DNA of 64,000 bases from positions 127,289-191,288 of IMG/VR virus record IMGVR_UViG_3300025319_000005; one strand, given 5' to 3'. Below, piece by piece: positions 22,042 to 58,110 of the stretch. Source of the stretch: a virus. The position numbers were made by a program, and so were the translations under genes. The first letter of the stretch is position 1; each line of letters begins with the position of its first letter. The notes below the pieces were generated by a model. The model made no database searches. It had not been told where the DNA came from and was given only the letters and a program-made list of their open reading frames with translations.

Positions 22042-23076
22042 TTATCTAATTTCAACATTAAGACGCTCAATTGAGGTGAATTTTATATTTTCTTGGATTT
22101 CATTTATTTCTGTATTTGTTAAAGTGCGATCATTTGATTGAAAAACTATTCTATAACACTTAGATTGTTTACCTGTTTTTGGGTGAGCAAATTCATCTAT
22201 TAATGAAACATTTTCTATTAAATCGCCTCCATTTTCTCTCACAATTTCACAAAAATTATTATGAGCGAAATTAGTATCTGCCCAAAATGCCAAATCTCTG
22301 GATATTGGTGGATAACTTGAGTATTCCTTAAATTTAACTACATCTCCAGAAATAAATTGATTTATAAATCTTTCATCAGACGACCAAAAGTAACGTATGT
22401 CTGGTATTTCAAATAAGAGGATAGACAATCTTTCCAAACCTAATCCAAAAGCAAATGCAGCTTTATTTTCTAAACCACAATTTTCCATAATTTTAGGTTG
22501 AACAACCCCTGCACCAAGAACCTCTAACCATTTTCCCTGAAACATAACTTCAACTTCAAAAGATGGATGTGTAAAAGGAAAATAATCTTCATTGAAGCGG
22601 TATTCACAATTTGGAAAAAGAACATCAATAAGACCTTTTAATGTTTTTTTAAGTTCTTCTTCTGCGTTTTTTCCATCTTCAATTACACATACACCTTCCA
22701 TTTGGTGAAAAACCGGATAATGAGAGCTGTCAATATCATCTTTCCGATACACATCACCTGTAACTAAAAATTTTGTATGACCAGCAGTTAATAATTCATT
22801 TTGGTGAGCCGATGTATGGGTTCGTAATATATGATTCTCATCAAAATAATAAGTATCACTCAATGAACGTGCAGGATGATCTTTTGGAATAAGTAGTTTA
22901 TCAAAACAATTTTCAGTTGTAACCTTTGGATTTAAATCATCAAATTTTTTATATTCATCTCCAAAGTAATCATAGATTTTTCTTTTAATAATTTCTAAAG
23001 GATGATTTTTTTGATTGTGTAAATTTCTGCCAATTTTAGCTTGGATTCCGGGGGTAATGTTTGATTTAAATTCCAT
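22042..23076 (-). CDS. pheS: Single-chain (mitochondrial-type) phenylalanyl-tRNA synthetase
   Basis: HPAR..DTYY, LRTHTSAHQ, HYPVFHQMEG, FPFTHPSFE, AFGLGLERL, plus C-terminal FDX-ACB domain (YPPISRDLAF..TLTNTEIN). Confidence 0.92.
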   Translation of the reverse strand: MEFKSNITPGIQAKIGRNLHNQKNHPLEIIKRKIYDYFGDEYKKFDDLNPKVTTENCFDKLLIPKDHPARSLSDTYYFDENHILRTHTSAHQNELLTAGHTKFLVTGDVYRKDDIDSSHYPVFHQMEGVCVIEDGKNAEEELKKTLKGLIDVLFPNCEYRFNEDYFPFTHPSFEVEVMFQGKWLEVLGAGVVQPKIMENCGLENKAAFAFGLGLERLSILLFEIPDIRYFWSSDERFINQFISGDVVKFKEYSSYPPISRDLAFWADTNFAHNNFCEIVRENGGDLIENVSLIDEFAHPKTGKQSKCYRIVFQSNDRTLTNTEINEIQENIKFTSIERLNVEIR

Positions 23077-23163
23077 AAAATAATTGTTTAATTGTTTTTT
23101 GTACAAATTTATAAAAATAATATTAATTAACAATATATTAAACGGAAATCTTTTTAGAATGTT

Positions 23164-45566: not shown

Positions 45567-45645
45567 TACCTTCAATAGGATTCGAACCTACATTTTCAGC
45601 TCCGTTACACTTATTGAGTCCGTAGCTCAATGTGGCTATAAAGGC
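45567..45645 (-). tRNA. Atypical tRNA-Arg(ACG) lacking a D arm
   Basis: Acceptor GCCTTTA/TGAAGGT; ATTGAG-CTACGGA-CTCAAT; GTAGG-TTCGAAT-CCTAT. Confidence 0.65.
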
Positions 45646-45646
45646 A

Positions 45647-46333
45647 TTATATTAATTCATATCGTTTTGCCCACTTTCTCACCGCAACATCACTAACTCC
45701 AAATTTTCTACCAAGTGCACAATATGAATTATTTTCTATCATTTCTTTTAATTCTTCTTTAGAGGGTCTGTTTTTTACTTTTCTAAAATTTAATCTAGGT
45801 ACATATTTTCTCGTTGTTTTTTTATTTGTTTTATTTTTTTTTGCATTTTTTCTGTCTACGCCAATTTTACCACGGCAATGAGTTTCTAATGTGAAATTGC
45901 AGTTTGGACATAAAAATCTTAAGTTTTCTAATCTATTATCATTATTTATTCCGTTTTCGTGGTCAATAATTAAACTAATTTTTTTACCTCTCCATATTTC
46001 TCCTTGTCCACATTCTTTACATTCATATTCTATCATGTTATTATCTCGTATTCTTTTTTTTAAACAAGCCCTTGCAACAGAACTGTTTTCACAAAAAATT
46101 TCTTCATCACTTTTCCTTAATAATCTGTCTTCATTAAACATTTTTTTAGCAAAATCACTACGGTTTAAAAAATGAGAAGTATCTATTGACCATTTATTTA
46201 AATTTGTTTTAAGTATTTTATAAGATGAAGAAGAATCGCTTCTTCCAGATTTTACTATAACATCTCTAAATGTGATGCTTTCAGATACTAATTTTTGTAA
46301 TTCTTCTTTTGTATATTCTTTATGTTCTTTCAT
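45647..46333 (-). CDS. HNH homing endonuclease
   Basis: CKECG..DHENGINNDNRLENLRFLCPNC. Confidence 0.88.
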   Translation of the reverse strand: MKEHKEYTKEELQKLVSESITFRDVIVKSGRSDSSSSYKILKTNLNKWSIDTSHFLNRSDFAKKMFNEDRLLRKSDEEIFCENSSVARACLKKRIRDNNMIEYECKECGQGEIWRGKKISLIIDHENGINNDNRLENLRFLCPNCNFTLETHCRGKIGVDRKNAKKNKTNKKTTRKYVPRLNFRKVKNRPSKEELKEMIENNSYCALGRKFGVSDVAVRKWAKRYELI

Positions 46334-46390
46334 AATTCTAACTTATTTTAATGTAAATAGGTTAGAATTTTTTAATAAAGTAAATAGTTG

Positions 46391-46466
46391 AGGATAAGAA
46401 GAGAATTAAACTCCTGTTAAATATGTTTTGCAGACATATCCCGATTTCAACATTGGGTACTTATCC
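46391..46466 (-). tRNA. tRNA-Cys(GCA)
   Basis: GGATAAG/CTTATCC; CT-GCA-AA; U discriminator. Confidence 0.85.
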
Positions 46467-46480
46467 TTGTAAAAATTAAA

Positions 46481-46750
46481 AAAGTAAAATCCTAAGTATA
46501 GCCGCGATTTTGTTCTATCTCATCATTTATCTGAAGGTATTGCTACCAACTGGAGACTTTAAACGTCTACCACGCACCTACCCGACTATCAACAACGTAA
46601 AGGTTCCCCGTCTACAGTCTGTTTGGCTTGCATCCTATGTTGCGGAAGTACATACGCTATTTGTTATAGCTTCTTCCTCCTTTTAAAAGATGTCGCGAAC
46701 TTCCTCTCGATTTTAAGAATCGAGCGATGAGTCCTTCAGGATTTTACTTT
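46481..46750 (-). ncRNA. rnpB: RNase P RNA (compact)
   Basis: P1 AAAGTAAAATCCT/AGGATTTTACTTT; CR-I-like GAGAGGAAGTTCGCG; CR-V-like AGAACAAAATCGCGGCTATA. Confidence 0.85.
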
Positions 46751-46755
46751 TCTTG

Positions 46756-46827
46756 AGGCTCCACTGACAATCGATGTCAGGACTCAAATTTACAAGATTC
46801 GTGTTTTGCCACTTAAACTACGGAGCC
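46756..46827 (-). tRNA. tRNA-Thr(TGT)
   Basis: Cloverleaf with CT-TGT-AA. Confidence 0.9.
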
Positions 46828-46843
46828 ATTATTTGTTCTTATG

Positions 46844-46917
46844 TGGAATCTACCGGCATTGAACCGGTCTCTCAGGCGTGCAAGGCAAGTGTTCTAAGCC
46901 AAATGAACTAAGACCCC
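46844..46917 (-). tRNA. tRNA-Ala(TGC)
   Basis: GGGGTCT/AGATTCC with G3:U70; CT-TGC-AC. Confidence 0.88.
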
Positions 46918-46955
46918 AATTTAATTTGTTCAAAGTACAAATTATTAAAAACTTT

Positions 46956-47031
46956 TGGCGAGTATGACCGGTCCTGACCCGGCGACCTCCTCATAGACAG
47001 TGAGGCATTCTTCCAACTGAACTACACACTC
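46956..47031 (-). tRNA. tRNA-Asp(GTC)
   Basis: Cloverleaf with encoded GCCA end. Confidence 0.9.
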
Positions 47032-47043
47032 ATTATTTTTTAA

Positions 47044-47352
47044 AAAAGTAAGACGCCATTTCGCTGATAGCGTTTTTTGTGTTCTGTTTAATGCGCCAAA
47101 GAACATCTGATTATGTTCAGCATTTAGCGTTCATGCTTGGTTATTATAACATACTAACATTCCTAATATTGTCTGATTACCTATTTTGAGTTTGCATAGT
47201 AGGTTGATTTTTATTTCCAGGGTAAAAATCAACAAACAAACCTAACGTCTGATAAACTTTATTTTTCATCCGGTAAACGTTTTGTACATTGTTTAGTTCA
47301 TTAGGCTAAAACAACACGTCTTTTTCACGGACAACATTAGTAACTTACTTTT
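47044..47352 (-). ncRNA. Unassigned structured RNA of about 300 nt
   Basis: Closing stem AAAAGTAAG/CTTACTTTT; long-range CTAATGTTGTC/GACAATATTAG; several hairpins; no ORF of 60 aa or more. Confidence 0.6.
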
Positions 47353-47356
47353 CTTG

Positions 47357-47430
47357 TAGTGCATCTGAGAATTGAACTCAGTACTTCCACGTTATCGGCG
47401 TGGCACTCTGGACCGATGAGTTAATGCACT
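47357..47430 (-). tRNA. tRNA-Ile(GAT)
   Basis: Cloverleaf with CC-GAT-AA loop. Confidence 0.9.
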
Positions 47431-47444
47431 GTTTTTATTTAAAG

Positions 47445-47517
47445 TCTAGGTGGCCTGCTCCGACCAGGCGGTCTCCAGTTCCCAAAACTGGCGGATTTCC
47501 AACTTTCCCACACCTAG
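47445..47517 (-). tRNA. tRNA-Pro(TGG)
   Basis: CTAGGTG/CACCTAG; TT-TGG-GA. Confidence 0.9.
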
Positions 47518-47555
47518 AAATTTTGTTTATCTTTCCAAACTGTCTTTTAATAAGA

Positions 47556-47618
47556 GTTCAAGCTCGGTTATCCACCGATTCGAAGGACTGCATTAGCCTT
47601 CTCTGCAGACACTTGAAC
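47556..47618 (-). ncRNA. Small three-stem RNA with a possible pseudoknot
   Basis: GTTCAAG/CTTGAAC, CTGCA/TGCAG, TCGGT/ACCGA stems; GAAGG/CCTTC. Confidence 0.5.
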
Positions 47619-47620
47619 AT

Positions 47621-47696
47621 TGGAGCGAAAAACCAGGTTCAAACTGGCGACCCCCAGAGTGGAAATCTGGCGCTCTATCAACTGAGCTATTTTCGC
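47621..47696 (-). tRNA. tRNA-Gly(TCC)
   Basis: Cloverleaf with TCCA end. Confidence 0.92.
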
Positions 47697-47785
47697 TTAT
47701 GTATATAATTCTCTCAGACCATATTACCAAGATTTACTTTGGACTCACCGTATTTTAAAAGTGAGCAGAATTGTATTTAATTAAA

Positions 47786-48733
47786 TTATTCTAATAATAA
47801 TTCATCAATTGTTAAAATTGAATTTAAATTATCTATTGTTTTTTTAAATATCATTTTAACATTAATGTTGTTTTGTTCTAATACTAAACTCATTTTTGTT
47901 TTATCTATTATTGAATAATATCCTTTAGTTTCTATGTATAAGTTAAAATTTGGCAAATAAAAATCTGGCACATACGTTTTTTCAACACCTTCTTTAATAT
48001 ATTGAATATATATTTTTCTAATCCACAATATTTTATTGTCATTTAACCATTGCGACATTTTTAATTCATATTTTCCTCTTAAAGAATATTCTTCACCAAT
48101 AATATTTTTTTGTTTATAAAATTTCACATGTTTAAAATTGTTACTTATTTCATTTTCTTCTAACATCTTGGAGTGAGATTTGCTAATTTTCGATTTTTGT
48201 TCAGAAGAAAGTGGCTTTCCTAATTGGTGATGTATTCTCTTACCAGTAGCATACATTTCTTTTTGTTGCTCAGATGCTTTATTTACCCTATTATCAGTTT
48301 CCTTTGTAAGTCCTCTTGACCATCCCATTTTTGATTTAGTCTCTGCATTACTGTATTTTTTATTTTTATATTCAACTCCATCCGGTGTATGCATTTGAAA
48401 TATATGACCACATATACCAAGTTTGTGAAATATTAATTCGCAATGAGGACATTTATATTTATCTACATCAACTTTCCAAGATTCATCTACTGTTATTTGT
48501 TTTTTATTAACTGTATTACATTTATTATAATGCCTTTCAAAATTAGAAACAGAAATATTTTTATTACATTTATCACAACATTTTGTGTTTTTAGGTTTTC
48601 CAAGTAAAGAAATACTTAAATTTTTTAATCTTTCTTTTAACTTTGGATTAGATTCACAATTTACTATATGAGCACCAAATTGTTGTGGGATCTCAAACTC
48701 AAAAGACTCTTTGCAATGCGGACAAGTTTTCAT
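47786..48733 (-). CDS. Homing endonuclease-like protein (Zn fingers, NUMOD3-like, PD-(D/E)XK)
   Basis: GWSRGLTKETD; YVPDFYLP..IETKG. Confidence 0.8.
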   Translation of the reverse strand: MKTCPHCKESFEFEIPQQFGAHIVNCESNPKLKERLKNLSISLLGKPKNTKCCDKCNKNISVSNFERHYNKCNTVNKKQITVDESWKVDVDKYKCPHCELIFHKLGICGHIFQMHTPDGVEYKNKKYSNAETKSKMGWSRGLTKETDNRVNKASEQQKEMYATGKRIHHQLGKPLSSEQKSKISKSHSKMLEENEISNNFKHVKFYKQKNIIGEEYSLRGKYELKMSQWLNDNKILWIRKIYIQYIKEGVEKTYVPDFYLPNFNLYIETKGYYSIIDKTKMSLVLEQNNINVKMIFKKTIDNLNSILTIDELLLE

Positions 48734-48802
48734 ACTTTTTTATTATAAATAGTATAAAAAATTGCAGGTTAGAAAATTGTTAGCACGTTATTGTTTTTTG
48801 AG

Positions 48803-48885
48803 TGGGAGTTGATGGAGACGAGCCACCCGAGTTTTAAAACAACCGATTTACAGTCGGTCCCGCTACCCCTACGGAATAAACTCCC
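48803..48885 (-). tRNA. tRNA-Tyr(GTA)
   Basis: CT-GTA-AA with long variable arm. Confidence 0.88.
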
Positions 48886-48897
48886 ATTTTAATGTTG

Positions 48898-48969
48898 CAC
48901 AGACGGTTATAATCGAAATAACTACGTGTAGTTTTTGGAGAACTCACCGACACCAAGCCTGTCGTCTGT
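48898..48969 (-). tRNA. tRNA-Trp(CCA)
   Basis: ACAGACG/CGTCTGT; CT-CCA-AA; G discriminator. Confidence 0.8.
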
Positions 48970-49008
48970 ATTTTATCTATTTTTTAAGCTGTAAGATAAT
49001 TAGCTAAG

Positions 49009-49080
49009 TAGCGAAAACTGGAATCGAACCAATGTAGACACAGCTTATGAGACTGGTGGGAAACCAACATCCTTTTCGCA
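49009..49080 (-). tRNA. tRNA-Met(CAT), initiator-like
   Basis: CT-CAT-AA; 1:72 mismatch. Confidence 0.75.
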
Positions 49081-49093
49081 ATATATTTTTTTG

Positions 49094-49166
49094 TAGCCCC
49101 TGCCGGTCCTGACCCGACGACTTCATTCATGTAAAAAATGCACTCTACCAACTGAGTTAAGGGGCT
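49094..49166 (-). tRNA. tRNA-Val(TAC)
   Basis: Cloverleaf with TT-TAC-AT. Confidence 0.9.
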
Positions 49167-49171
49167 ATTAG

Positions 49172-49245
49172 TAGCATATATCAGAATCAAACTGATGACC
49201 TTCCTCATATGAAAAGGACGCTCTAATCAACTGAGCTAATATGCT
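49172..49245 (-). tRNA. tRNA with CAT anticodon (Met elongator or Ile2)
   Basis: Cloverleaf with TT-CAT-AT. Confidence 0.88.
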
Positions 49246-49255
49246 ATTTAAAAAG

Positions 49256-49327
49256 AGCGGGTGATGAGGATTAAACTCACGGCCTCATCCTTGGCAAGGA
49301 TGCGCTCTATCGCTGAGCTACACCCGC
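49256..49327 (-). tRNA. tRNA-Gly(GCC)
   Basis: GCGGGTG/CACCCGC; TT-GCC-AA. Confidence 0.92.
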
Positions 49328-49400
49328 TTTTTTGATTATCAATATGTCAAATAACTCTGCAAACTTTTAAGTCATTGCTCGACTTGTAAACTTTTTAAGC

Positions 49401-49433
49401 AACAAAAAACCCGAACCTTTTTTAAGTCCGGGT
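49401..49433 (-). terminator. Attenuator terminator of tRNA operon 1
   Basis: ACCCGGAC..GTTCGGGT followed by TTTTTGTT. Confidence 0.85.
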
Positions 49434-49472
49434 GTGTTATGTTGTTTCCCTTTTAAGTTTTTATATCTTACT

Positions 49473-49601
49473 TCATGAAACAAAATGTTTTAACACACCC
49501 ATATTATCGCGGCTATAATCGCCAGGGGTAATACACGCATACCCGACTGTCGGCATGACTGCCCAAATCGTTGTAATTGTTGTATGTGTTAAATTTTTCA
49601 T
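49473..49601 (-). CDS. Leader peptide of tRNA operon 1 (42 aa)
   Basis: MKNLTHTTITTIWAVMPTVGYACITPGDYSRDNMGVLKHFVS*; contains antiterminator strand GGGTGTGTTA. Confidence 0.8.
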   Translation of the reverse strand: MKNLTHTTITTIWAVMPTVGYACITPGDYSRDNMGVLKHFVS

Positions 49602-49624
49602 TGAAGATGTTTTCTTTTTAATTA

Positions 49625-49740
49625 AACTTAAATAGTATAAAAAATTATTTTCTCAAATATTTCTTTCGACCAATTATAACGCAAAGATATAATTAAAGTT
49701 TAATAAAAAGCAAATTTATTTTCATTTATTTTTTATTTAA
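49625..49740 (-). promoter_or_regulatory. Promoter block of tRNA operon 1 (TTTG..TATCTTTG plus CTATTTA)
   Basis: Near-duplicate at about 57995-58110. Confidence 0.75.
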
Positions 49741-49913
49741 CTTGTAAAATCCTGATATTCAGCTAAATAATTTTTTGTAAAATCCTAAACATAATCGTAA
49801 AATCCTGTCATTGATAATATTAAACAAAAAATCCACAATTTTTTTAAGCAAGGGAGCCAACGAATTTATTCGTTGGAGTATGTCAGTCAATAATATTTCC
49901 TTGCAATTTGTTT

Positions 49914-50117
49914 TTACCAACCTTCTTTAGCAACTCCGGATGCAACTGCAGCTTCTGCGTTAGCAGAGCTCATTATAGCACACATTTTATGTCCTTCTTT
50001 AGTTTCTCCTTTACATACGTATCCACCTTTTGCGTTTTTAGATATGATAGGATTAACGAAAGTTTGTTTGCTTTTTAATTTCATACAATATCCTTCTAAT
50101 ACGATTAATGTGCTCAT
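49914..50117 (-). CDS. DUF5679-like small protein
   Basis: GYCMKLKSK..G.HKM; paralog of 51512-51712. Confidence 0.65.
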   Translation of the reverse strand: MSTLIVLEGYCMKLKSKQTFVNPIISKNAKGGYVCKGETKEGHKMCAIMSSANAEAAVASGVAKEGW

Positions 50118-50221
50118 GATTTTTAGTTTTAAGTTTTTTATAAATATGAAATATTTTATAAAACAAGTTTTAATATATGTTTATGTTCTAAATTAGCTTA
50201 TATTTATATAAAAACAAGCTC

Positions 50222-50975
50222 ATGAAAAATTTAAAAAAAATAATAGAAGAAACAGTAAGTAAAGTTCTGGGTGAAGGCGATTTTTTAACACATCAAATAA
50301 AAAATTCAATAAGCGTGTTAAATAATGTTTTCAAAGACAACTTAGTTGCAAAGATAAACGAAACAAATGATAAAGATAAACGAAACAAATGATAGTGTTA
50401 TTGATGTTTATATTAAGAAATACAATATAAATGCATTAACAAAAATAGATAAAACGATAGAAAATTTAGGATATTTTATTTCTATTTTTAGTATAAATGG
50501 ATTTCAAAAGAAATTTAACAAAGATTCATTTTTTAAAAAAATAAAAGACTTAAAAGAATTAACTCCAATATACCTAAAGCTGGAGAAAAAAATGGACTCA
50601 AATGAAGATATAGATACAATTATCCCATCTATGTTATATCACATTACACATGAAAGACATCTCGCAAAAATCAAGAAAATAGGTTTAGTTCCAAAATCTA
50701 AATCTAAAAAATCAGCTCATCCTGAAAGAATATATTTAGCGTGGAATGAAGAATCTGCTATAAAATTAGTAAAAGAATTTTCAGATTTAGAATACGAATT
50801 TGAACATAATTATGTTTTATTAAAAATTGACACAAGTAAAATTTCTGAGTTTAGACGTGATAAAAATTTCAAATTACATAATGACCCAAACTTTACAGAT
50901 GGTTATTTTACATATGATAATATACCTCCTGCTGCAATAAATTTTGAAAATATGAAATTAATAAACCTTGAATAA
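50222..50975 (+). pseudogene. ART/Tpt1-fold protein interrupted by a 22-bp tandem duplication
   Basis: LYHIT..IKKIGLVPK..RIYLA..IPP motifs; AAGATAAACGAAACAAATGATA x2 at 50351-50394. Confidence 0.6.
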
Positions 50976-51507
50976 TATGAGTTTGTTAGAAAAAATTAAA
51001 ATAGAAAGATTTATTTCGGAAGATATTGACGAAGTTAAACAGTTAATTAAAAACATACATTCAAAAATCTGTTTTAATGAAACAAATATTCACATTTATA
51101 ATAATTTAATGTATAAACTTTTTTTTAACGGTTATAGTTTTCTTTTGGATTTTTCATTAAAAGTAACATATAGAAAAAAAATAATAGGAGTTATGTTATT
51201 ATCTGACTTTTCGTTTTATTGGCTATTAGAAACATATAAAGAAGATGACAAAAACATAAGCAAAAAAATAAAAAAATATAAGAACAAAGAAGGTTTAAGG
51301 AGTGTTTTTTTTGGAATTGATAGGAAATATCAAAAAAAAGGATTAGGCTCTAAAATGATTGAATATATACAAAAAAACTATAAGCAGTTTGATTATTTGT
51401 GGGGAATTCAACATAAAGAGATTTCAAATATGGAATTTTTCTTAAAAAGAAGAAAAGTTGTTGCAGAAATAGGAAATTCCGTATATACTGTGCAGGATTT
51501 GAAATAA
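50968..51507 (+). CDS. GNAT acetyltransferase
   Basis: IDRKYQKKGLGSKMI. Confidence 0.75.
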   Translation: MNNMSLLEKIKIERFISEDIDEVKQLIKNIHSKICFNETNIHIYNNLMYKLFFNGYSFLLDFSLKVTYRKKIIGVMLLSDFSFYWLLETYKEDDKNISKKIKKYKNKEGLRSVFFGIDRKYQKKGLGSKMIEYIQKNYKQFDYLWGIQHKEISNMEFFLKRRKVVAEIGNSVYTVQDLK

Positions 51508-51511
51508 AAGC

Positions 51512-51712
51512 TTAAAACCCTTCTTTAGTAACTCCAGATGCTACGGCAGCTTCTGCGTTGGCTTTACTCATTAATAGACTCATCTTATGTCCATCTTTAC
51601 TTTCGCCCTTTGCAATGTACCCACCCTTTTTAGTTAAGCTAATAACAGCATTAACCATTACTCCCTTTGATTTTGTCTTAAGACAATAAGCCTCTAATAC
51701 TACTTTTTCCAT
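51512..51712 (-). CDS. DUF5679-like small protein
   Basis: EAYCLKTKSK; paralog of 49914-50117. Confidence 0.65.
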   Translation of the reverse strand: MEKVVLEAYCLKTKSKGVMVNAVISLTKKGGYIAKGESKDGHKMSLLMSKANAEAAVASGVTKEGF

Positions 51713-51750
51713 TTTTTTTGGTTTTATAGTAAATATTAAAAATTTTTATT

Positions 51751-52098
51751 TTAAGTCGGTGATGTTATTAATTGAAATTTAGTAGGATGCGACAATCTAT
51801 AATCAACTTGTCTTTCATCAACATATTCTCGATAATTAACATAACCTTTAACATATGGAGTTACGCGAGCATCGAAAAAAATAACATCTCCGTTATTTAA
51901 CGCTCCTAATTTCTCAAATCCTTTTGTTTTGTTAAACCACAAATGGTCAGTAACAATTTTATCAGACTTATCCTTAATATCTTTTAAGAGTATTGTTTCT
52001 ACAGGATATCCATGATAATTCTTCTTTGTTCCAAATTTCTCAAATATTCCACTAAATCTGTCCCGTATATTTTCTATTTTTTCTAAATCTTTTCTCAT
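51751..52098 (-). CDS. Hypothetical protein
   Basis: TDHLWF..FDARVTPYVKGY..LSHPT. Confidence 0.65.
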   Translation of the reverse strand: MRKDLEKIENIRDRFSGIFEKFGTKKNYHGYPVETILLKDIKDKSDKIVTDHLWFNKTKGFEKLGALNNGDVIFFDARVTPYVKGYVNYREYVDERQVDYRLSHPTKFQLITSPT

Positions 52099-52667
52099 TG
52101 ATAAAACCCTTTTCTTTTTATATAATTAGCAACTTGCGGTGCTAAAAAATCTTTCACATCTCTATTTTCCTTTATCTCGTTTCGGATAAATGTGGAAGAC
52201 ATTTCAATTAAATTAACATCAAACATTTTTACTTTTGGATGTAAAATTAGATTACCGCCATCGCTGGAGCTACGTGAATATACATAAATTTGATATTCTT
52301 CAAGTATTTTTTGATAATCTTTCCACTTGTGTAAGTTTTCTAAATTATCAGTTCCCATTATTATAACAAATTCATTTTCTTTAAATGTTTCTTTTAATAA
52401 ATTGAGCGTATCTATAGTATACGAAGGTTTTGATAAATTAAATTCAATATCACTGGCTCTCATATGTTCATTATCAATTAATGCCATATTAACCATTTTT
52501 AACCTTTCTTTTTCTGATAGTAGAGAATTTTTATCCTTGAGAGGATTGTGAGGAGATATTATAAACCACACACATTCCAATTCGGTATGTTCAAGCATGT
52601 AAGACGCCAATATTGTGTGACCGTTGTGGATTGGATTAAAACTACCGAAGAATAAACCTATTTTCAT
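52095..52667 (-). CDS. nadD: Nicotinate-nucleotide adenylyltransferase
   Basis: GSFNPIHNGH, SYTIDTL, GTDN..L.KW, SSTFIR motifs. Confidence 0.95.
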   Translation of the reverse strand: MKIGLFFGSFNPIHNGHTILASYMLEHTELECVWFIISPHNPLKDKNSLLSEKERLKMVNMALIDNEHMRASDIEFNLSKPSYTIDTLNLLKETFKENEFVIIMGTDNLENLHKWKDYQKILEEYQIYVYSRSSSDGGNLILHPKVKMFDVNLIEMSSTFIRNEIKENRDVKDFLAPQVANYIKRKGFYQ

Positions 52668-52749
52668 ATGTGATATTATTAAACGAAGATAATCATTATA
52701 ATGTTGCAACTAACTTTTTTAAACTATTTATTGAAAAAAGAAATATAAA

Positions 52750-54123
52750 ATGAATAATAAAGAACTAAGAAAATCGATAAGAAGGATTTTAAAGGAAAAT
52801 CTTGAAAATTCTGATTGGGTGAATGCCAGTGATGCTCAAAAAGCTGCAATGCAAGATATAGACTCAGAAGATGAATTTGAACACTTAGGAACTAATAGGT
52901 TTGAAAAAGATTTTGATGTTGAAGATTTTCTATATGATTTAGAAGCTCAAAAAAATATGTCTGAGCCATCTGTAAAAAGATTAGAAAAACAAATTGGGCA
53001 ATTAAAAAGATTTGGAAAGGGTTCTTTGAATGAATTATCGCCAGAAATAAGACAATCCGCACTTAAAAAAGCTGTTGATTATATTGAACAACCTGGAGAT
53101 ACCTATCATAAAGACCCGCTCCAATATATTAAGAAAAAAAACCAAGCAAATTCATTTATTTCTCATGTTAATCCTGAGTTAAAAAAAGAAGCTATGGAAA
53201 TAGCAAAAATGATAGATGTAAATTGTGAAAGTCGTATAGAAAAAGAAGCGGTAGGAAGTACACTTGAACCAAATGTTGTATTATATTTTGGTCAAAACAT
53301 TGCAGATTTAAGTAATCAAATACTTAAAATTGCCATTAAAAAAGATAATCATACATGGGAAACCAAAAAATTTATTCCTGAAAATATTCAAAGAAGATTG
53401 GCTAATTTTATAAAAAAGATTCAAACAAAAGAAATATCTAGTCCAGTTAAACAATTGAATGAGAGATTTCTTGGTGGATGGCATTATTTCGCAACTCCAG
53501 AAGGTAAAGAAGAATATATTAAAGACCTCGAGTCTAAAAAGATTAATGCAAAAGGAGAAGAATTAGAGCAAATTGAAAAAGAACTTAAAAAGTTAAAATC
53601 AATAAAACCAAAATCCTTAAAAGAAGAAACATCAAAACTTGACAAGCCAAAAGATTCTGCAGGAAATTCAATATCATCCGGAGTGAGAGTTGAAGATTTA
53701 GAGTCGGGTAGTGCTGGACGAGTTGAGAGATTTGGTATTGACGACAAAGGACAATTAACAGTTCATGTTGCTTGGATAACAAAATATGGACAGATAGCTC
53801 CAAAGTCCATTGTTTATCCCAAAAATATAATTGTTAAAGATTCTGCAAAAAAGATAACAGACGAAGGAATTAAAGATACTTTAAAAAATATTTATAAAGA
53901 ATTGAATCCTATTGAAAAATGGAAACAAATGAAAGAAAATCGTAAAAAGCTCGAAAAAGAAGTTAGTGATTTACGAAGAGAAGTTTCTGAAAAGGAAAAA
54001 GAATTAGAAAAAATAGTGAATAGTAATCATATTAAAGCTGATGTAAGTAATGATGTTGACGAAGGAATTGGAGCTGGATTATCACTTCCAATAAAAAAAG
54101 GAGCCGGAAGCAGATTTAAATAA
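52750..54123 (+). CDS. Putative virion protein
   Basis: ELRKSIRRILKE tag; CTATTTA upstream. Confidence 0.65.
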   Translation: MNNKELRKSIRRILKENLENSDWVNASDAQKAAMQDIDSEDEFEHLGTNRFEKDFDVEDFLYDLEAQKNMSEPSVKRLEKQIGQLKRFGKGSLNELSPEIRQSALKKAVDYIEQPGDTYHKDPLQYIKKKNQANSFISHVNPELKKEAMEIAKMIDVNCESRIEKEAVGSTLEPNVVLYFGQNIADLSNQILKIAIKKDNHTWETKKFIPENIQRRLANFIKKIQTKEISSPVKQLNERFLGGWHYFATPEGKEEYIKDLESKKINAKGEELEQIEKELKKLKSIKPKSLKEETSKLDKPKDSAGNSISSGVRVEDLESGSAGRVERFGIDDKGQLTVHVAWITKYGQIAPKSIVYPKNIIVKDSAKKITDEGIKDTLKNIYKELNPIEKWKQMKENRKKLEKEVSDLRREVSEKEKELEKIVNSNHIKADVSNDVDEGIGAGLSLPIKKGAGSRFK

Positions 54124-54130
54124 AACTATT

Positions 54131-55144
54131 TTGGAAAATAAGTTAAGAAAATATATTCAAAAAATCCTTCAAGAATCTTTAAATACAGAAGACATTCCTG
54201 AAGACATCCCCATTAAAAAAGATTTAAAATTCACTGAGACCTCAAGAGGTTCGCATCATGGCCAGCAGGATTTAACAGCTTATGCCACAATAGAGGGAAT
54301 AGTAGTTGGCTATGTTGAATATTCTATATTTCAGAACGAAATCCACATAGAAATGATTGAAGTTGTTGAAGAACAAAAAAGACAAGGAATAGCAACAAAA
54401 TTATTTCATTTTATAAGACTTAAAAATTCTGGTATGAAAATTATTCCAGGATATTCAACCGAAGAAGGAAGTAAATTTTATAATGCTTATAAAAGCAAAA
54501 AACTAAAAGAAGATATAAATGTTCCTATAAATGTTGGAGATACCGTTCTTGGTGGCCGTTTTAAAAATAAAAAAATTATTATTAAAGATATAGGAAAGTC
54601 AGATAAGGGCGACATTACAATTAATGACAAGCCTCTTTTAAAAGTTAGGATTCCAAAGAAAATAAATGAAGAAAAATTGACATGTTTATATATTCATGGT
54701 TTAGGAGCTGAAATATCTGATGATATTAAAAATTCTCTTTCCAAATACAATCTCATATATCCCAAAATAAACTACGACAAAACAACAAAACCATATTATC
54801 AATGTTTAGAAATATTAAATAAAGATAAGGTGGATTTTATAATAGGTCATTCTATAGGTGGAGTTATGGGTTATTATTTAGCTAAAGAAACAAATATTCC
54901 AGCTTTATTATTATGTCCGGCATTTGGAGATGAATATAAAGTTCTCACAAGTAAGTTAGTTAAAGATAATAACCCAAAAATAGTTGTTATCATAGGAAAA
55001 AAAGATGATGAAGTTGATAATAAAAAAGTTAAATCCACTTTAGAAAATCAACCCAATTGTGTTATTAAAGAATTAAATATCGGACATGATATTACAGAAA
55101 AAAATCTGATTTTATTTGCTGATGGTTTTGTTGAAAATTTATAA
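54131..55144 (+). CDS. GNAT + alpha/beta-hydrolase fusion with virion tag
   Basis: KRQGIATKL; YIHG..GHSIGG..D..GH. Confidence 0.7.
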   Translation: MENKLRKYIQKILQESLNTEDIPEDIPIKKDLKFTETSRGSHHGQQDLTAYATIEGIVVGYVEYSIFQNEIHIEMIEVVEEQKRQGIATKLFHFIRLKNSGMKIIPGYSTEEGSKFYNAYKSKKLKEDINVPINVGDTVLGGRFKNKKIIIKDIGKSDKGDITINDKPLLKVRIPKKINEEKLTCLYIHGLGAEISDDIKNSLSKYNLIYPKINYDKTTKPYYQCLEILNKDKVDFIIGHSIGGVMGYYLAKETNIPALLLCPAFGDEYKVLTSKLVKDNNPKIVVIIGKKDDEVDNKKVKSTLENQPNCVIKELNIGHDITEKNLILFADGFVENL

Positions 55145-55171
55145 TTGAAATTATTATTTTTTAATATAAAG

Positions 55172-55244
55172 TGCTTCCAGTTGGACTTGAACCAACGACC
55201 CGAAAATTAAGAATTTCCTACTCTACCATCTGAGCTATGAAAGC
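55172..55244 (-). tRNA. tRNA-Lys(CTT)
   Basis: Cloverleaf with TT-CTT-AA. Confidence 0.9.
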
Positions 55245-55332
55245 AATAATTTATAATGTATTATAGATATATGTTGAGTAAAATCCACAGAATGTTCTAT
55301 TTTATGGATTGTGCTCAACAAATATGTAATTG

Positions 55333-55406
55333 TGTGTCCGACAAGATTTGAACTTGTGACCTCCGCATTAAAAGTGCGGTATTCTAACCAGCTGAATTAC
55401 GAACAC
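55333..55406 (-). tRNA. tRNA-Lys(TTT)
   Basis: Cloverleaf with CT-TTT-AA. Confidence 0.92.
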
Positions 55407-55410
55407 ATAG

Positions 55411-55497
55411 TGTACCCAGAAAGATTCGAACTTTCAACGGCCTTTCGGCTCCCCACAGGGTAAAAACCTGTTGCTCTACCAATTGAGCCATGGGTAC
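55411..55497 (-). tRNA. tRNA with TTT anticodon and long variable arm
   Basis: ACAGG-TTTTTAC-CCTGT; variable arm with GCC-GAAA-GGC hairpin. Confidence 0.85.
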
Positions 55498-55501
55498 AAA
55501 T

Positions 55502-55538
55502 AAAAAAGCCTGAATCTACACAGAGACTCAGGCTTTTT
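55502..55538 (-). terminator. Attenuator terminator upstream of the Lys tRNAs
   Basis: AAGCCTGAGTCT..AGATTCAGGCTTTTTT. Confidence 0.85.
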
Positions 55539-55553
55539 GGACTTATAAAAAAG

Positions 55554-55619
55554 TCAATGAGCTATCGTCCCCGGAGACCAGGGTTTCTTAGATTTTTTTA
55601 TTTTGATTATTGTTAACAT
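55554..55619 (-). CDS. Lys-rich leader peptide (21 aa)
   Basis: MLTIIKIKKSKKPWSPGTIAH*. Confidence 0.7.
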   Translation of the reverse strand: MLTIIKIKKSKKPWSPGTIAH

Positions 55620-55730
55620 TTTGTTTATTTTTTTAAATTAAAAAGAGCCCACACTCAACTGGTGGCTAATTTTTATGAACGAGTATTACCCAAGTTCTGT
55701 CATCCACTATGACAAATTTCTATTGTTATT

Positions 55731-56083
55731 TTAACCTTGAATATCTTGACATTCCGTGATGTTATAGGTCTTTATAAAATCCTTACCATCAGTTATTATT
55801 AAATCCAAGTTACTTGAATAGTACCCGTTATTAGAACCGTGTCCAGCTATTTTTACAGAATGTCCTTGTATTGGAATTAATTCAATTCCGTAATCAGGAA
55901 TTCTTTTGAAGAAATCATCATTTGTTAAATCAAATTCTAATCCTTCAAATCAGCGATTGTTAAATCATCTAATGTTAATGAATGTGATTCACAACAATCT
56001 GATTCATGATTTGAATATAACTTTACTTCATTTTCAAATTCAATTGCATCTGAGTCAACTTTTACTACTTTTAATTTGTTCAT
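55731..56083 (-). pseudogene. Phage protein with an apparent 1-nt frameshift
   Basis: SDCCESH half continues in another frame as LEFDL..HGSNNGYYS; one T appears missing near 55947. Confidence 0.6.
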
Positions 56084-56099
56084 TTTATTTATGTTTTTG

Positions 56100-56173
56100 G
56101 GTGCTATATCGGCTACGACCCGATTACCTTCTGTACCACAAACAGACACTCTACCAATTGAGCTAATAACACC
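56100..56173 (-). tRNA. tRNA-His(GTG)
   Basis: G-1:C73; TT-GTG-GT. Confidence 0.9.
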
Positions 56174-56186
56174 ATATTAAATTTGT

Positions 56187-56957
56187 TTAAAATACAAATT
56201 TTAAGACTTTAATATTATTTACTTTTTCACTATATCCAAAATTTCTAATTTCATCATGTATTTCTATGTGACAATTTGCACAAACCATAATACATTTATC
56301 AACTTCTACTTTTAATCTTTCAAAACCATAAGATTTGCCACCAATAGTAAAATCTTTTTCACTTGGATTTGTATGATGAAATTGTAAAACTGATGTTGAT
56401 TTATTATATCCACAACATTCACATTTCCATCCTTTATATTCAATTAATCTAATTTTACTTCTTTTTCTCCAATCTATAACAGCCTGACTTTTGGTTTTAG
56501 TTTTTTGTCTTTTTTTATTTGTTTTAATCAAATCATCAGAAATGTAATTTCTAATTGTTGTCCTATCTACCTTAAAATAAGCGGCTGTTTTTCTTAAAGA
56601 CTTACTTTCTATATAAAAATTAACAACTTCTATTTCAATAAGTTCTTTTTTCTTAAATGTACCACTTGATTTATTTAATCCATACAAATTACATATTTTA
56701 ATTAACTTATCTTCTCCAATGTCCAAAATTGACCTTATTTCGTCATAGCTTTTCAATTCTCTTCTGTAAGCAATTATTTTGTTTATAACTTCATCAGTTA
56801 TTCCAATTAAAAAACTGTTTCTTACTCCGCCAAGTCCAACATTATTTATGTGATAAGACACAGTGCTTTTTGAACACTTTAATTGTTCAACTATTTCTTT
56901 TATAGTTGAGCCTTTTTCTCTTAAAGAGATAATTTTATTTTTCAAACCTTTATCCAT
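56187..56957 (-). CDS. HNH homing endonuclease with HTH
   Basis: CECCGY..LQFHH..KCIMVCANCH; paralog of 12009-12704. Confidence 0.85.
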   Translation of the reverse strand: MDKGLKNKIISLREKGSTIKEIVEQLKCSKSTVSYHINNVGLGGVRNSFLIGITDEVINKIIAYRRELKSYDEIRSILDIGEDKLIKICNLYGLNKSSGTFKKKELIEIEVVNFYIESKSLRKTAAYFKVDRTTIRNYISDDLIKTNKKRQKTKTKSQAVIDWRKRSKIRLIEYKGWKCECCGYNKSTSVLQFHHTNPSEKDFTIGGKSYGFERLKVEVDKCIMVCANCHIEIHDEIRNFGYSEKVNNIKVLKFVF

Positions 56958-57028
56958 ATTATTAACTTTATTTGTTAATAAATATGGGATAAAATTCAAA
57001 AAAACAAAATTTATTTCAAAGAACGTTG

Positions 57029-57100
57029 CGGACCCGCCTGGACTTGAACCAGAAAACGCAGATTAACAATCTGAAGTGATACCAATTTCACCACAGGTCC
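57029..57100 (-). tRNA. tRNA-Asn(GTT)
   Basis: TT-GTT-AA; G discriminator. Confidence 0.85.
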
Positions 57101-57106
57101 CAATAT

Positions 57107-57427
57107 TTATTTTTTAATTTCTTCTTTAGTAATAGAATCACCAACCTCTATTACTTTGCCAAAAACTTTTTTTGTCCAACCATTTATTCCTCCTTTATTA
57201 TTTCCTATTAAACAACCTTTTTGTGCATTAATTGCTTTTACTAAATGTGTGTAGAAATTGCCGTGCACTTTCGCATAGACTATATCTCCTACTTTAACTT
57301 CATCTATTGTAATTGGGGCAATTTTATGTTCTTGTCCCGACTTAATTAAAGGAACCATTGAGTTTCCTTTTTCACTGGTGACGAAAGTCTCACCGTTTTG
57401 TAATCTTTCTAATTTATAATTTCTCAT
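57107..57427 (-). CDS. S24/S26 peptidase-like protein
   Basis: KGNSMVPLIKSG..VGDIV..HLV. Confidence 0.7.
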   Translation of the reverse strand: MRNYKLERLQNGETFVTSEKGNSMVPLIKSGQEHKIAPITIDEVKVGDIVYAKVHGNFYTHLVKAINAQKGCLIGNNKGGINGWTKKVFGKVIEVGDSITKEEIKK

Positions 57428-57443
57428 TTTTTATTATTTGTTT

Positions 57444-57532
57444 TGGCGGAAAACGGGCAAATCGAATACCATTCAAATTAACGAACCTCTCGCTTAGCAG
57501 GCGGAGACAACTCCCTGGTTGTTTCGTTTTCC
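57444..57532 (-). tRNA. tRNA-Ser(GCT)
   Basis: CT-GCT-AA, long variable arm, GCCA end. Confidence 0.85.
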
Positions 57533-57559
57533 ATTTATTATTTCAAAGAACATTTTTTG

Positions 57560-57645
57560 CAGAGGCTAAGAGAGTTCAACTCTTACAACCTTTTCAAGTC
57601 CTAGCTATTTTCAAGATAGTGTACCTCCGTCAACTGGGAGCCTCT
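57560..57645 (-). tRNA. tRNA-Ser(TGA)
   Basis: CT-TGA-AA, long variable arm, G73. Confidence 0.8.
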
Positions 57646-57724
57646 ATGTTTGCCTATTAACTCTATCACTCACCTAAACGGTGGATTACAGAACTTCGGC
57701 AGGATTTTATTCCTGTTCAGTTAG

Positions 57725-57801
57725 TGGAGATTGCCAGAATTGAACTGGCGTTAATTTCACGGTTCTTCAAACCGCAGCTAGACCGTCTCAGCTAAATCTC
57801 C
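57725..57801 (-). tRNA. tRNA-Phe(GAA)
   Basis: GGAGATT/AATCTCC; TT-GAA-GA. Confidence 0.88.
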
Positions 57802-57822
57802 ATTATTTTCAAAAAACGTTAT

Positions 57823-57858
57823 AAAACAAAAAACCCGAACTCTTTTGTAAGTCCGGGT
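57823..57858 (-). terminator. Attenuator terminator of tRNA operon 2
   Basis: ACCCGGAC..GTTCGGGT followed by TTTTTGTTTT; homologous to 49401-49433. Confidence 0.85.
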
Positions 57859-57886
57859 GTGTTTATGTTGTTTTAATTTTAATCTT

Positions 57887-57976
57887 TTACGATTCAAAAG
57901 GACAATACACACCCGCTCGGCTTTTATTACTAAAACTCGATTTGTTAAAATGCTTATGTGTATTATTTGTTGTCAT
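57887..57976 (-). CDS. Leader peptide of tRNA operon 2 (29 aa)
   Basis: MTTNNTHKHFNKSSFSNKSRAGVYCPFES*; contains antiterminator strand CGGGTGTGT. Confidence 0.8.
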   Translation of the reverse strand: MTTNNTHKHFNKSSFSNKSRAGVYCPFES

Positions 57977-57994
57977 TTTGTATTCTTAATATTC

Positions 57995-58110
57995 TTTAAA
58001 TAGTATAAAAAATTATTTTTCTAAAAATTCTTATTATCAATTATAACGCAAAGATATAATTAAAGTTTCAAAAAAGCAAATTTATTTTGATTTATTTTTT
58101 ATTTCATTAA
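57995..58110 (-). promoter_or_regulatory. Promoter block of tRNA operon 2
   Basis: TATCTTTG at 58049-58056 and CTATTTA; duplicate of 49625-49740. Confidence 0.75.

Follow-up and report, generated by a model that had tools for sequence, protein, structure and literature searches.

Candidate leader-peptide attenuators with codons matched to the tRNA genes behind them in a phage genome

The reason for phage transfer RNA (tRNA) genes has been debated for decades, the two explanations being codon compensation and the replacement of destroyed host tRNAs. A stretch of 64,000 nucleotides (hereafter the window), bases 127,289–191,288 of the linear 212,632-base virus record IMGVR_UViG_3300025319_000005 (29% G+C, estimated to be 81% complete), raises the question of what decides when such genes are transcribed. 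Each of its three tRNA blocks is preceded by a short open reading frame (ORF) and an intrinsic terminator, all on the minus strand and all where a first-pass annotation, made from the letters alone, had placed them. We consider it very likely that the three units are ribosome-coupled transcription attenuators of the trp/his type, each of which would transcribe its tRNA block only when the codons served by that block are decoded slowly. The first-pass annotation had read them in this way, and the reading has held up on conserved frames, a well-placed antiterminator, matching that follows re-partitioned arrays and a positional peak in the match.

Classic attenuators share an anatomy: an ORF with cognate codons, an antiterminator overlapping the 5' arm of the terminator, a tract of uridines (U tract) and the controlled genes directly behind. 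The units of the window have a leader ORF with enriched codons, a terminator formed by segments 3 and 4, a predicted antiterminator formed by segments 2 and 3, and sensing codons on which a ribosome would leave segment 2 free. Leader ORF 1 (49473–49601) encodes 42 amino acids (MKNLTHTTITTIWAVMPTVGYACITPGDYSRDNMGVLKHFVS); its segment 2 lies at about 49501–49492, and segment 3, intrinsic terminator 1 (49433–49409) and the U tract lie within 49403–49437. Terminator 1 is part of the consensus structure of seven leader-1 sequences. Leader ORF 2 (57887–57976) encodes 29 amino acids (MTTNNTHKHFNKSSFSNKSRAGVYCPFES), with segment 2 at about 57914–57906 and segment 3 and intrinsic terminator 2 at 57833–57862 (terminator 57858–57833); its length and frame are the same in the relatives L001 and L006. 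Leader ORF 3, of 21 amino acids (MLTIIKIKKSKKPWSPGTIAH; 55554–55619), contains five Lys codons, and two relatives have five consecutive Lys codons at this position; terminator 3, of 15 base pairs, follows at 55503–55538. All three leader regions fold better than shuffled sequences (z −2.4, −4.1 and −3.1). In leaders 1 and 2 the final third of the ORF contains a G-rich segment 2, complementary to the beginning of the terminator 5' arm. In transcripts truncated at the terminator loop, the predicted antiterminator comprises 10 base pairs for leader 1, 9 for leader 2 and only 7-plus for the Lys leader. The leader 2 duplex is better than shuffled ones (p=0.002).

The match between leaders and tRNA blocks was scored over the sensing stretch, defined as codon 2 up to 12 nucleotides before segment 2, that is, the codons on which a stalled ribosome would not cover the antiterminator; whole ORFs were scored too. 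As control, windows of the same length were slid over 135 phage proteins. Leader 1 matches its block at 24/28 codons (background 0.48), which none of 33,728 protein windows equals, and leader 2 at 10/15 (background 0.21), which two of 35,483 equal. The first-pass annotation had held each ORF to be rich in the amino acids of the tRNAs downstream; this is so for leaders 1 and 2, but the Lys leader (4/10) is weak when taken alone. Over whole ORFs the matches are 30/41, 14/28 and 5/20. For operon 2 a set of His, Lys, Phe, Asn and Ser had been put forward. His, Phe, Asn and Ser tRNAs are present in block 2, but the Lys tRNAs form block 3, which is probably a second gate nested inside operon 2, since neither a terminator between terminator 2 and the Lys leader nor a promoter before the Lys leader was seen. 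The nesting would account for the Lys codons in leader 2, whose match rises to 12/15 when Lys is counted.

Relatives were sought with a motif built from no more than segments 2 and 3 and the end of the terminator, and blind to tRNAs and ORFs. It found 32 viral, 43 metagenome and 9 genome loci, where an earlier terminator pattern had found 6. Of 71 non-identical matches, many of them close kin, 36 are followed by a tRNA within 1 kb, with a short ORF over segment 2 in 35/36; where there was no tRNA but more than 1 kb of room, a leader ORF was present in 4/26 (9 matches with neither tRNA nor room were left out). A scan of 26 loci for a terminator plus ORF showed that almost all phage tRNA blocks with a visible start have a leader in front; none was found before a lone Leu tRNA in L013 or before blocks cut by locus ends. 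Leaders that lack the motif are among those found: one, rich in Ile and Arg, precedes Ile(TAT) and Arg(TCT), and the other, rich in Leu, Ser and Tyr, precedes Leu, Leu, Ser, Ser and Tyr. The L013 leader matches an array of Pro, Thr, Arg, Gly, Ala and Val tRNAs at 16/19 codons, and that of L079 an array of Gln, His, Pro, Ala, Ser, Met, Gly, Leu, Thr and Arg tRNAs at 19/20. In lineage B the Asp, Val and Met tRNAs have moved to the other operon, and their codons are likewise found in the other leader. The predicted attenuator design turns up again in five phage-like lineages, whose arrays are divided up differently.

A check of relatives for concordance of codons and anticodons, against shuffled controls, had been proposed in the first-pass annotation, and leaders and arrays proved concordant when compared with permuted pairings. 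The true pairing of leaders with arrays ranks first of 6 in the window, first of 362,880 for nine leaders from five lineages (for sensing stretches and whole ORFs alike) and, over 11 leaders, is beaten by 0/2,000,000 random pairings, although these ranks overstate independence because the leaders share ancestry. The nine leaders were taken one per family, with close duplicates, the truncated second block of L058 and bacterial loci set aside; background frequencies for all of them come from the window's genome, and segment 2 of the L058 leader was placed by eye. The matching amino acids lie 1–20 codons before segment 2. By position, the match is 34/45 at 15–11 codons before segment 2, 41/45 at 10–6, 26/45 just before segment 2 and 13/45 on segment 2 itself, with 13.2 expected per bin, and past segment 2 it stays at background; this profile is as a ribosome footprint would predict. 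With a ribosome modelled as a mask of 30 nucleotides, the antiterminator is retained up to an A-site position of about codon 29 in leader 1, 15 in leader 2 and 11 in the Lys leader; its predicted loss falls just past the matched codons.

The terminators might instead be fixed stops, passed with the help of a phage antitermination factor or by way of internal promoters, the ORFs being chance or vestigial. A candidate internal promoter motif does exist at 48747, within operon 1. The leader-1 ORF, however, is open and in frame in 7/7 aligned copies, the window included, despite insertions and deletions of 1–2 nucleotides in the flanks, and the leader frame beats both other frames in 9/9. The positional peak in the match, and antiterminators in four unrelated sequences, are further points against fixed stops; these four leaders were found without the search motif, and their own antiterminators are better than shuffled ones (p 0.006–0.014). 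We regard fixed stops as highly improbable.

The first-pass annotation had also predicted that Leu, Gln and Glu tRNAs would be found elsewhere, behind a leader rich in these residues. None was found in the window's contig (81% complete). A complete relative, G006 (518,809 bases), has a tRNA cluster that was fetched, unseen, after the prediction had been set down, and there the blocks are present. The first holds Thr, four Leu, Arg, Met-or-Ile(CAT), Ile(TAT) and three Glu tRNAs behind a leader of 33 codons, the next four Gln tRNAs behind a leader of 26 codons with seven consecutive Gln codons, and both newly seen blocks (2/2) have a terminator and predicted antiterminator. The prediction holds qualitatively. 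The match of the Gln leader, 6/13, is equalled by 0/35,753 protein windows; the Leu/Glu leader has a 12-codon core dense in matching residues but does not reach significance. The Gln leader and the Lys leaders have one terminator in common and differ in their codon runs (CAA/CAG versus AAA/AAG); the cassette therefore appears to be one that was duplicated and re-tuned. The true pairing ranks first of 120 within G006, and its five gated blocks cover all 20 amino acids, counting a Cys tRNA mislabelled Pro(agg).

The putative attenuator design is not confined to phages, since the motif is also found at the head of tRNA genes in Bacteroidia genomes. Of the nine genome matches to the motif, seven are Bacteroidota records with a leader ORF and downstream tRNA genes; three of these seven matches adjoin similar genes (one identified as Smr-domain). 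Five of the seven were extended (L097–L101, G001–G005): behind two of them lie arrays with 26 and 29 called tRNAs and a Ro60/TROVE gene, and the other three have two tRNAs with HNH and RtcB genes, ten tRNAs, and a single nearby tRNA; a Y RNA-like match is among the neighbours in these loci. The leaders hold 17–19 of the 20 amino acids. The idea that they were built to hold every amino acid was dropped, as they are more diverse than ordinary protein windows in only 1/5. Where an array serves nearly all amino acids, the codon match is uninformative.

Several results weigh against codon-specific attenuation, or against parts of it. The match of the Lys leader, with a background of 0.12, is reached by 775/36,158 protein windows (P 0.02–0.07), leader 2 of lineage B is marginal (18/28, P 0.06, with a TTG start chosen by the analyst), and by the preset rule the G006 Leu/Glu leader is not significant (9/19, P 0.21; 11/19 if the nested Gln is included, P 0.075; 7/19 for the Leu/Gln/Glu set, P 0.061). 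One of the Bacteroidia leaders has 19 amino acids in front of only two tRNAs. Transcription of the distal half of operon 1 could escape the gate by way of a copy, at 48747, of the second promoter-like motif. The antiterminator duplexes of three Lys leaders are not better than shuffled ones (p 0.09–0.34; p=0.086 for that of the window). Full-length folds favour the terminator at most ribosome positions (probability 0.3–0.98), so that any switch must be kinetic. The antiterminator is also predicted to form when no ribosome is present, in transcripts cut at the terminator loop, and a protector duplex between segments 1 and 2 beat shuffled upstream sequence in only 1/36, though a 9-base-pair 1:2 helix is in the consensus fold of the seven leader-1 copies and a 1:2 helix also appears in full-length folds. 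The ribosome-free antiterminator and the unsupported protector helix imply that the switch may open on any block of translation, codon-specific or not.

The units might therefore be attenuators that act as general sensors of translation failure, such as that caused by antibiotics, ribosome damage or blocked initiation, with the codon match only tuning the response or recording its history. The Bacteroidia leaders, with most amino acids represented in front of whole arrays or Ro60/RtcB genes, are in line with such a role, as is the Anabaena trn operon, which is induced by general translational stress (PMC8421152). A general sensor would nevertheless have no need of several distinct leaders within a genome, each with its own matching set of codons, as ranked in G006, nor of paralogous Lys and Gln leaders, and only one of the five Bacteroidia leaders is unusually diverse. 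We think this explanation improbable.

In the codon-specific scheme that we prefer, host RNA polymerase would start transcription and a ribosome would load on the leader ORF. A free-running ribosome would cover segment 2, the terminator would form and transcription would stop. If a shortage of the charged tRNA for some codon stalled the ribosome there, segment 2 would pair with segment 3, no terminator would form and the block would be transcribed; the new tRNAs would relieve the stall, giving negative feedback on tRNA supply. The Lys block, like the Gln block of G006, would be a second gate in a longer operon whose first leader also carries the codons concerned. Most likely, the signal is loss or overload of tRNAs in infection, caused by host tRNA nucleases or by phage demand; the gates may serve as anti-defence against nucleases of the PrrC/PARIS type.

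To a ribosome, the absence of a tRNA and the lack of its amino acid look alike, as is established for the trp and his attenuators. The signal might for this reason be amino-acid starvation, the mechanism being the same and the arrays serving starved hosts. L001 has a gene for a 228-amino-acid protein like histidyl-tRNA synthetase (HisRS) between tRNA-His and tRNA-Thr(GGT) of operon 2 (L001:3685–4371, plus strand), where the window has no such ORF; a synthetase in this place recalls synthetase attenuation (PMC2965389). Starvation would, however, be less convincing as a trigger: additional tRNA would bring no amino acid with it and would reduce the share of tRNA that is charged. The match moreover extends to isoacceptors, which points to tRNA species rather than amino acids: Ile codons are ATT in 5/5 before blocks with Ile(GAT) and ATA in 4/5 before blocks with Ile(TAT) (p 0.048). 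In operon 2 of L001 and L006 there is a tRNA-Thr(GGT), which is missing from the window, and these relatives have ACT at a codon that reads AGT in the window (a single event); Arg codons are mixed. The RNA-repair genes next to the Bacteroidia copies also speak against starvation, which we judge an unlikely signal.

A wider picture can be offered tentatively, and we hold it to be possible rather than probable. Huge Bacteroidota phages would carry four or five attenuators, two of them nested, that between them monitor all 20 amino acids at isoacceptor level and induce only the tRNA sets destroyed by host anticodon nucleases, as an inducible counter-defence and a self-adjusting tRNA supply; the cassette would be shared with Bacteroidia arrays and Ro60/RtcB loci, and the leader codons would record which tRNAs are attacked. 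Should codon-sensing gates be real, phage tRNA genes would be an on-demand supply and the debate on their purpose would become directly testable. Attenuation would extend from enzymes to tRNA, RNase P-like RNA and RNA-repair genes, the sorting of arrays into fixed isotype sets would be explained, and the leaders could be used directly as reporters of tRNA loss in the search for defences of Bacteroidota that target tRNA.

Leader-peptide control is known for amino-acid genes; no account of leader-peptide attenuation of tRNA genes was found in a literature covered mostly at abstract level, in which supplementary attenuator tables could list such leaders. The trpL, hisL, pheL and multivalent thrL and ilvGMEDA leaders have the classic anatomy set out above in common with the phage units. 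Unlike them, the phage units would control tRNAs, an RNase P-like RNA and endonucleases, with up to 12 amino acids per leader, and they are phage-borne, with apparently nested gates and a weak protector helix. Escherichia coli pheST is attenuated through the pheM leader. As in such synthetase attenuation, the output would restore decoding of the sensed codons, and the HisRS-like gene of L001 lies in a His-matched operon; in the phage, however, the output would be tRNA itself, in sets of several isotypes. T-box riboswitches likewise sense tRNA status and switch a terminator, but T-boxes bind tRNA directly, without a translated leader; no T-box was matched by Rfam in the window at gathering score or at E up to 1. 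No Rfam leader family was found in the window or in the relatives' leaders examined, and no Pfam family for the three leader peptides. Flavobacterium has amino-acid leaders of this kind (PMC9723704), and in bacilli His leaders precede hisS paralogues (PMC2965389, with no tRNA-gene attenuators in the parts covered).

The Anabaena trn operon is also a spare tRNA array that stays silent until translation is impaired, and it is linked to HNH and rtcB. It is a long array induced by translational stress, with direct repeats over the −10 box of its promoter, and in the main text of its description the strings 'attenuat' and 'leader' occur 0 times (PMC8421152); its repressor is reported to be TrcR (PMC10272220). 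Unlike the phage units, it is under promoter-repeat control and is not codon-specific. Bacteroidetes are listed among the phyla with two types of array (PMC8421152). Phage tRNAs are reported to counter anticodon nucleases (PARIS, retrons; PMC11464382, PMC11555353 and PMC10264068), which would give a phage reason to replace cleaved tRNAs; inducible codon-sensing transcription is not mentioned in the abstract portions covered.

Both operons have promoter-like sites found by a pattern scan. That of operon 2 (58048–58080, minus strand) consists of a TTTG box, a 20-nucleotide spacer and a TAnnTTTG box, of the Bacteroidota sigma-A type, and that of operon 1 (49681–49714, minus strand) is of the same type and a near-copy, the promoter region being duplicated between the two operons. 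Bacteroidota sigma-A promoters have a −33 box. The −7 consensus was described in Flavobacterium (PMC9723704). A second AT-rich motif follows at 49630–49644 in operon 1 and at 57998–58012 (minus strand) in the 5' leader of operon 2, and its presumed function is that of a phage late-promoter element; a related 7-mer is upstream of 32/135 ORFs, against about 4% expected. A sigma-70 promoter scan was at chance level (87 found versus 84.6), and AGGAG is nearly absent before ORFs (4/135). Because of the TAnnTTTG-type sites and the near absence of AGGAG, we infer a Bacteroidota host. The leader-1 region gave 14 weak and short matches among GenBank phages, with a coverage of at most 15%, and no cultured relative was found there. 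Large Bacteroidota phages are the subject of PMC12619734, with no 'attenuat' in the parts covered.

Block 1 (minus strand throughout) has the order Gly, Met, Val, Met, Trp, Tyr, Gly, Pro, Ile, Asp, Ala, Thr, Cys and Arg. In the window, 16 tRNAs were called by ARAGORN at its default setting, and Met, Trp, Tyr and Ser(GCT) at relaxed score only. The proximal Gly(GCC), Met(CAT), Val(TAC), Met(CAT), Trp(CCA) and Tyr(GTA) genes (48802–49327; the last three at relaxed score) are followed by an inserted stretch (47786–48761) with an endonuclease ORF (47786–48733) and its own copy of the second motif (48747–48761), the possible attenuator bypass. Next come Gly(TCC), Pro(TGG) and Ile(GAT) (47356–47696) and Asp(GTC), Ala(TGC) and Thr(TGT) (46755–47031), all called at default, and finally Cys(GCA) (46390–46466), an HNH ORF (45647–46333) and Arg(ACG) (45567–45645), the latter by Rfam with 34.6 bits, which together span 45567–46466. 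Three endonuclease ORFs in the window (45647–46333, 47786–48733 and 56187–56999) are each inserted between tRNA genes.

Two further elements of operon 1 are not in the first-pass annotation. An RNase P-like RNA lies at 46483–46744 on the minus strand (Rfam RF00010, E 1.9e-9; its 39 bits do not reach the gathering score of 100); its core blocks are invariant in 6/6 aligned phage sequences, and it may be co-induced with the tRNAs that it might process. Between tRNA-Ile and tRNA-Asp, an ORF-free, conserved non-coding stretch of about 320 nucleotides (47030–47350, minus strand) aligns in the window and three relatives and is absent in L001 and L065. It has a predicted multi-helix fold with two-sided change in 20/76 pairs (no control run) and no convincing Rfam match; it is probably a structured RNA.

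Block 2 (56099–57801, minus strand) contains Phe(GAA) (57724–57801), Ser(GCT) (57444–57532), Asn(GTT) (57028–57100) and His(GTG) (56099–56172), with an S24-like ORF at 57107–57427 and an HNH ORF at 56187–56999. A degenerate Ser(TGA)-like gene was read by eye at about 57560–57645 on the same strand, at a position that matches Ser(tga) of L001 and L006. A transfer-messenger RNA call over the Ser tRNAs, made by ARAGORN at relaxed score, was rejected. Block 3 (55171–55497, minus strand) consists of Lys(TTT), Lys(TTT) and Lys(CTT), called by ARAGORN and Rfam; an L10-leader match that Rfam gave for the Lys leader has 27.7 bits, below the cut-off of 44, and was taken for chance.

Some phage tRNAs have no gate: the window's genome and G006 have stand-alone tRNAs with no leader or terminator in front (L103–L105 in G006). 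Those of the window's genome lie outside the window at C1:72639–72712, 73046–73119 and 85425–85497. These and L103–L105 have a GAA-type anticodon loop and occur where another promoter-like motif is repeated (53 copies genome-wide); early tRNAs and decoys are two possible roles. Also outside the gated operons, at 22042–23133 of the window (minus strand), is a gene for a 363-amino-acid Phe-tRNA synthetase core fused to an anticodon-binding domain. Two copies, 75% identical, of an ORF of 66–67 amino acids are present at 49914–50117 and 51512–51712 (minus strand), with no Pfam family for the one copy scanned, and a homologue follows the Lys block of L001. The tRNA labelled Pro(agg) by ARAGORN at L001:13324 reads by eye as Cys(GCA) with an enlarged D arm, and the same label recurs in four relatives (L003, L006, L059 and L066).

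Motif matches that lack tRNAs were kept as controls only; they comprise another element in GC-rich contigs, whose 3:4 stems are weak, as well as repeat arrays and a small number of chance matches. A GC-richer viral family (L011, L012, L014–L016, L019, L021, L022, L027, L030, L032–L034, L036 and L037) has a 7-nucleotide inverted pair as in the motif, no tRNAs and a weak downstream stem, and presumably resembles phage immunity antisense RNAs.

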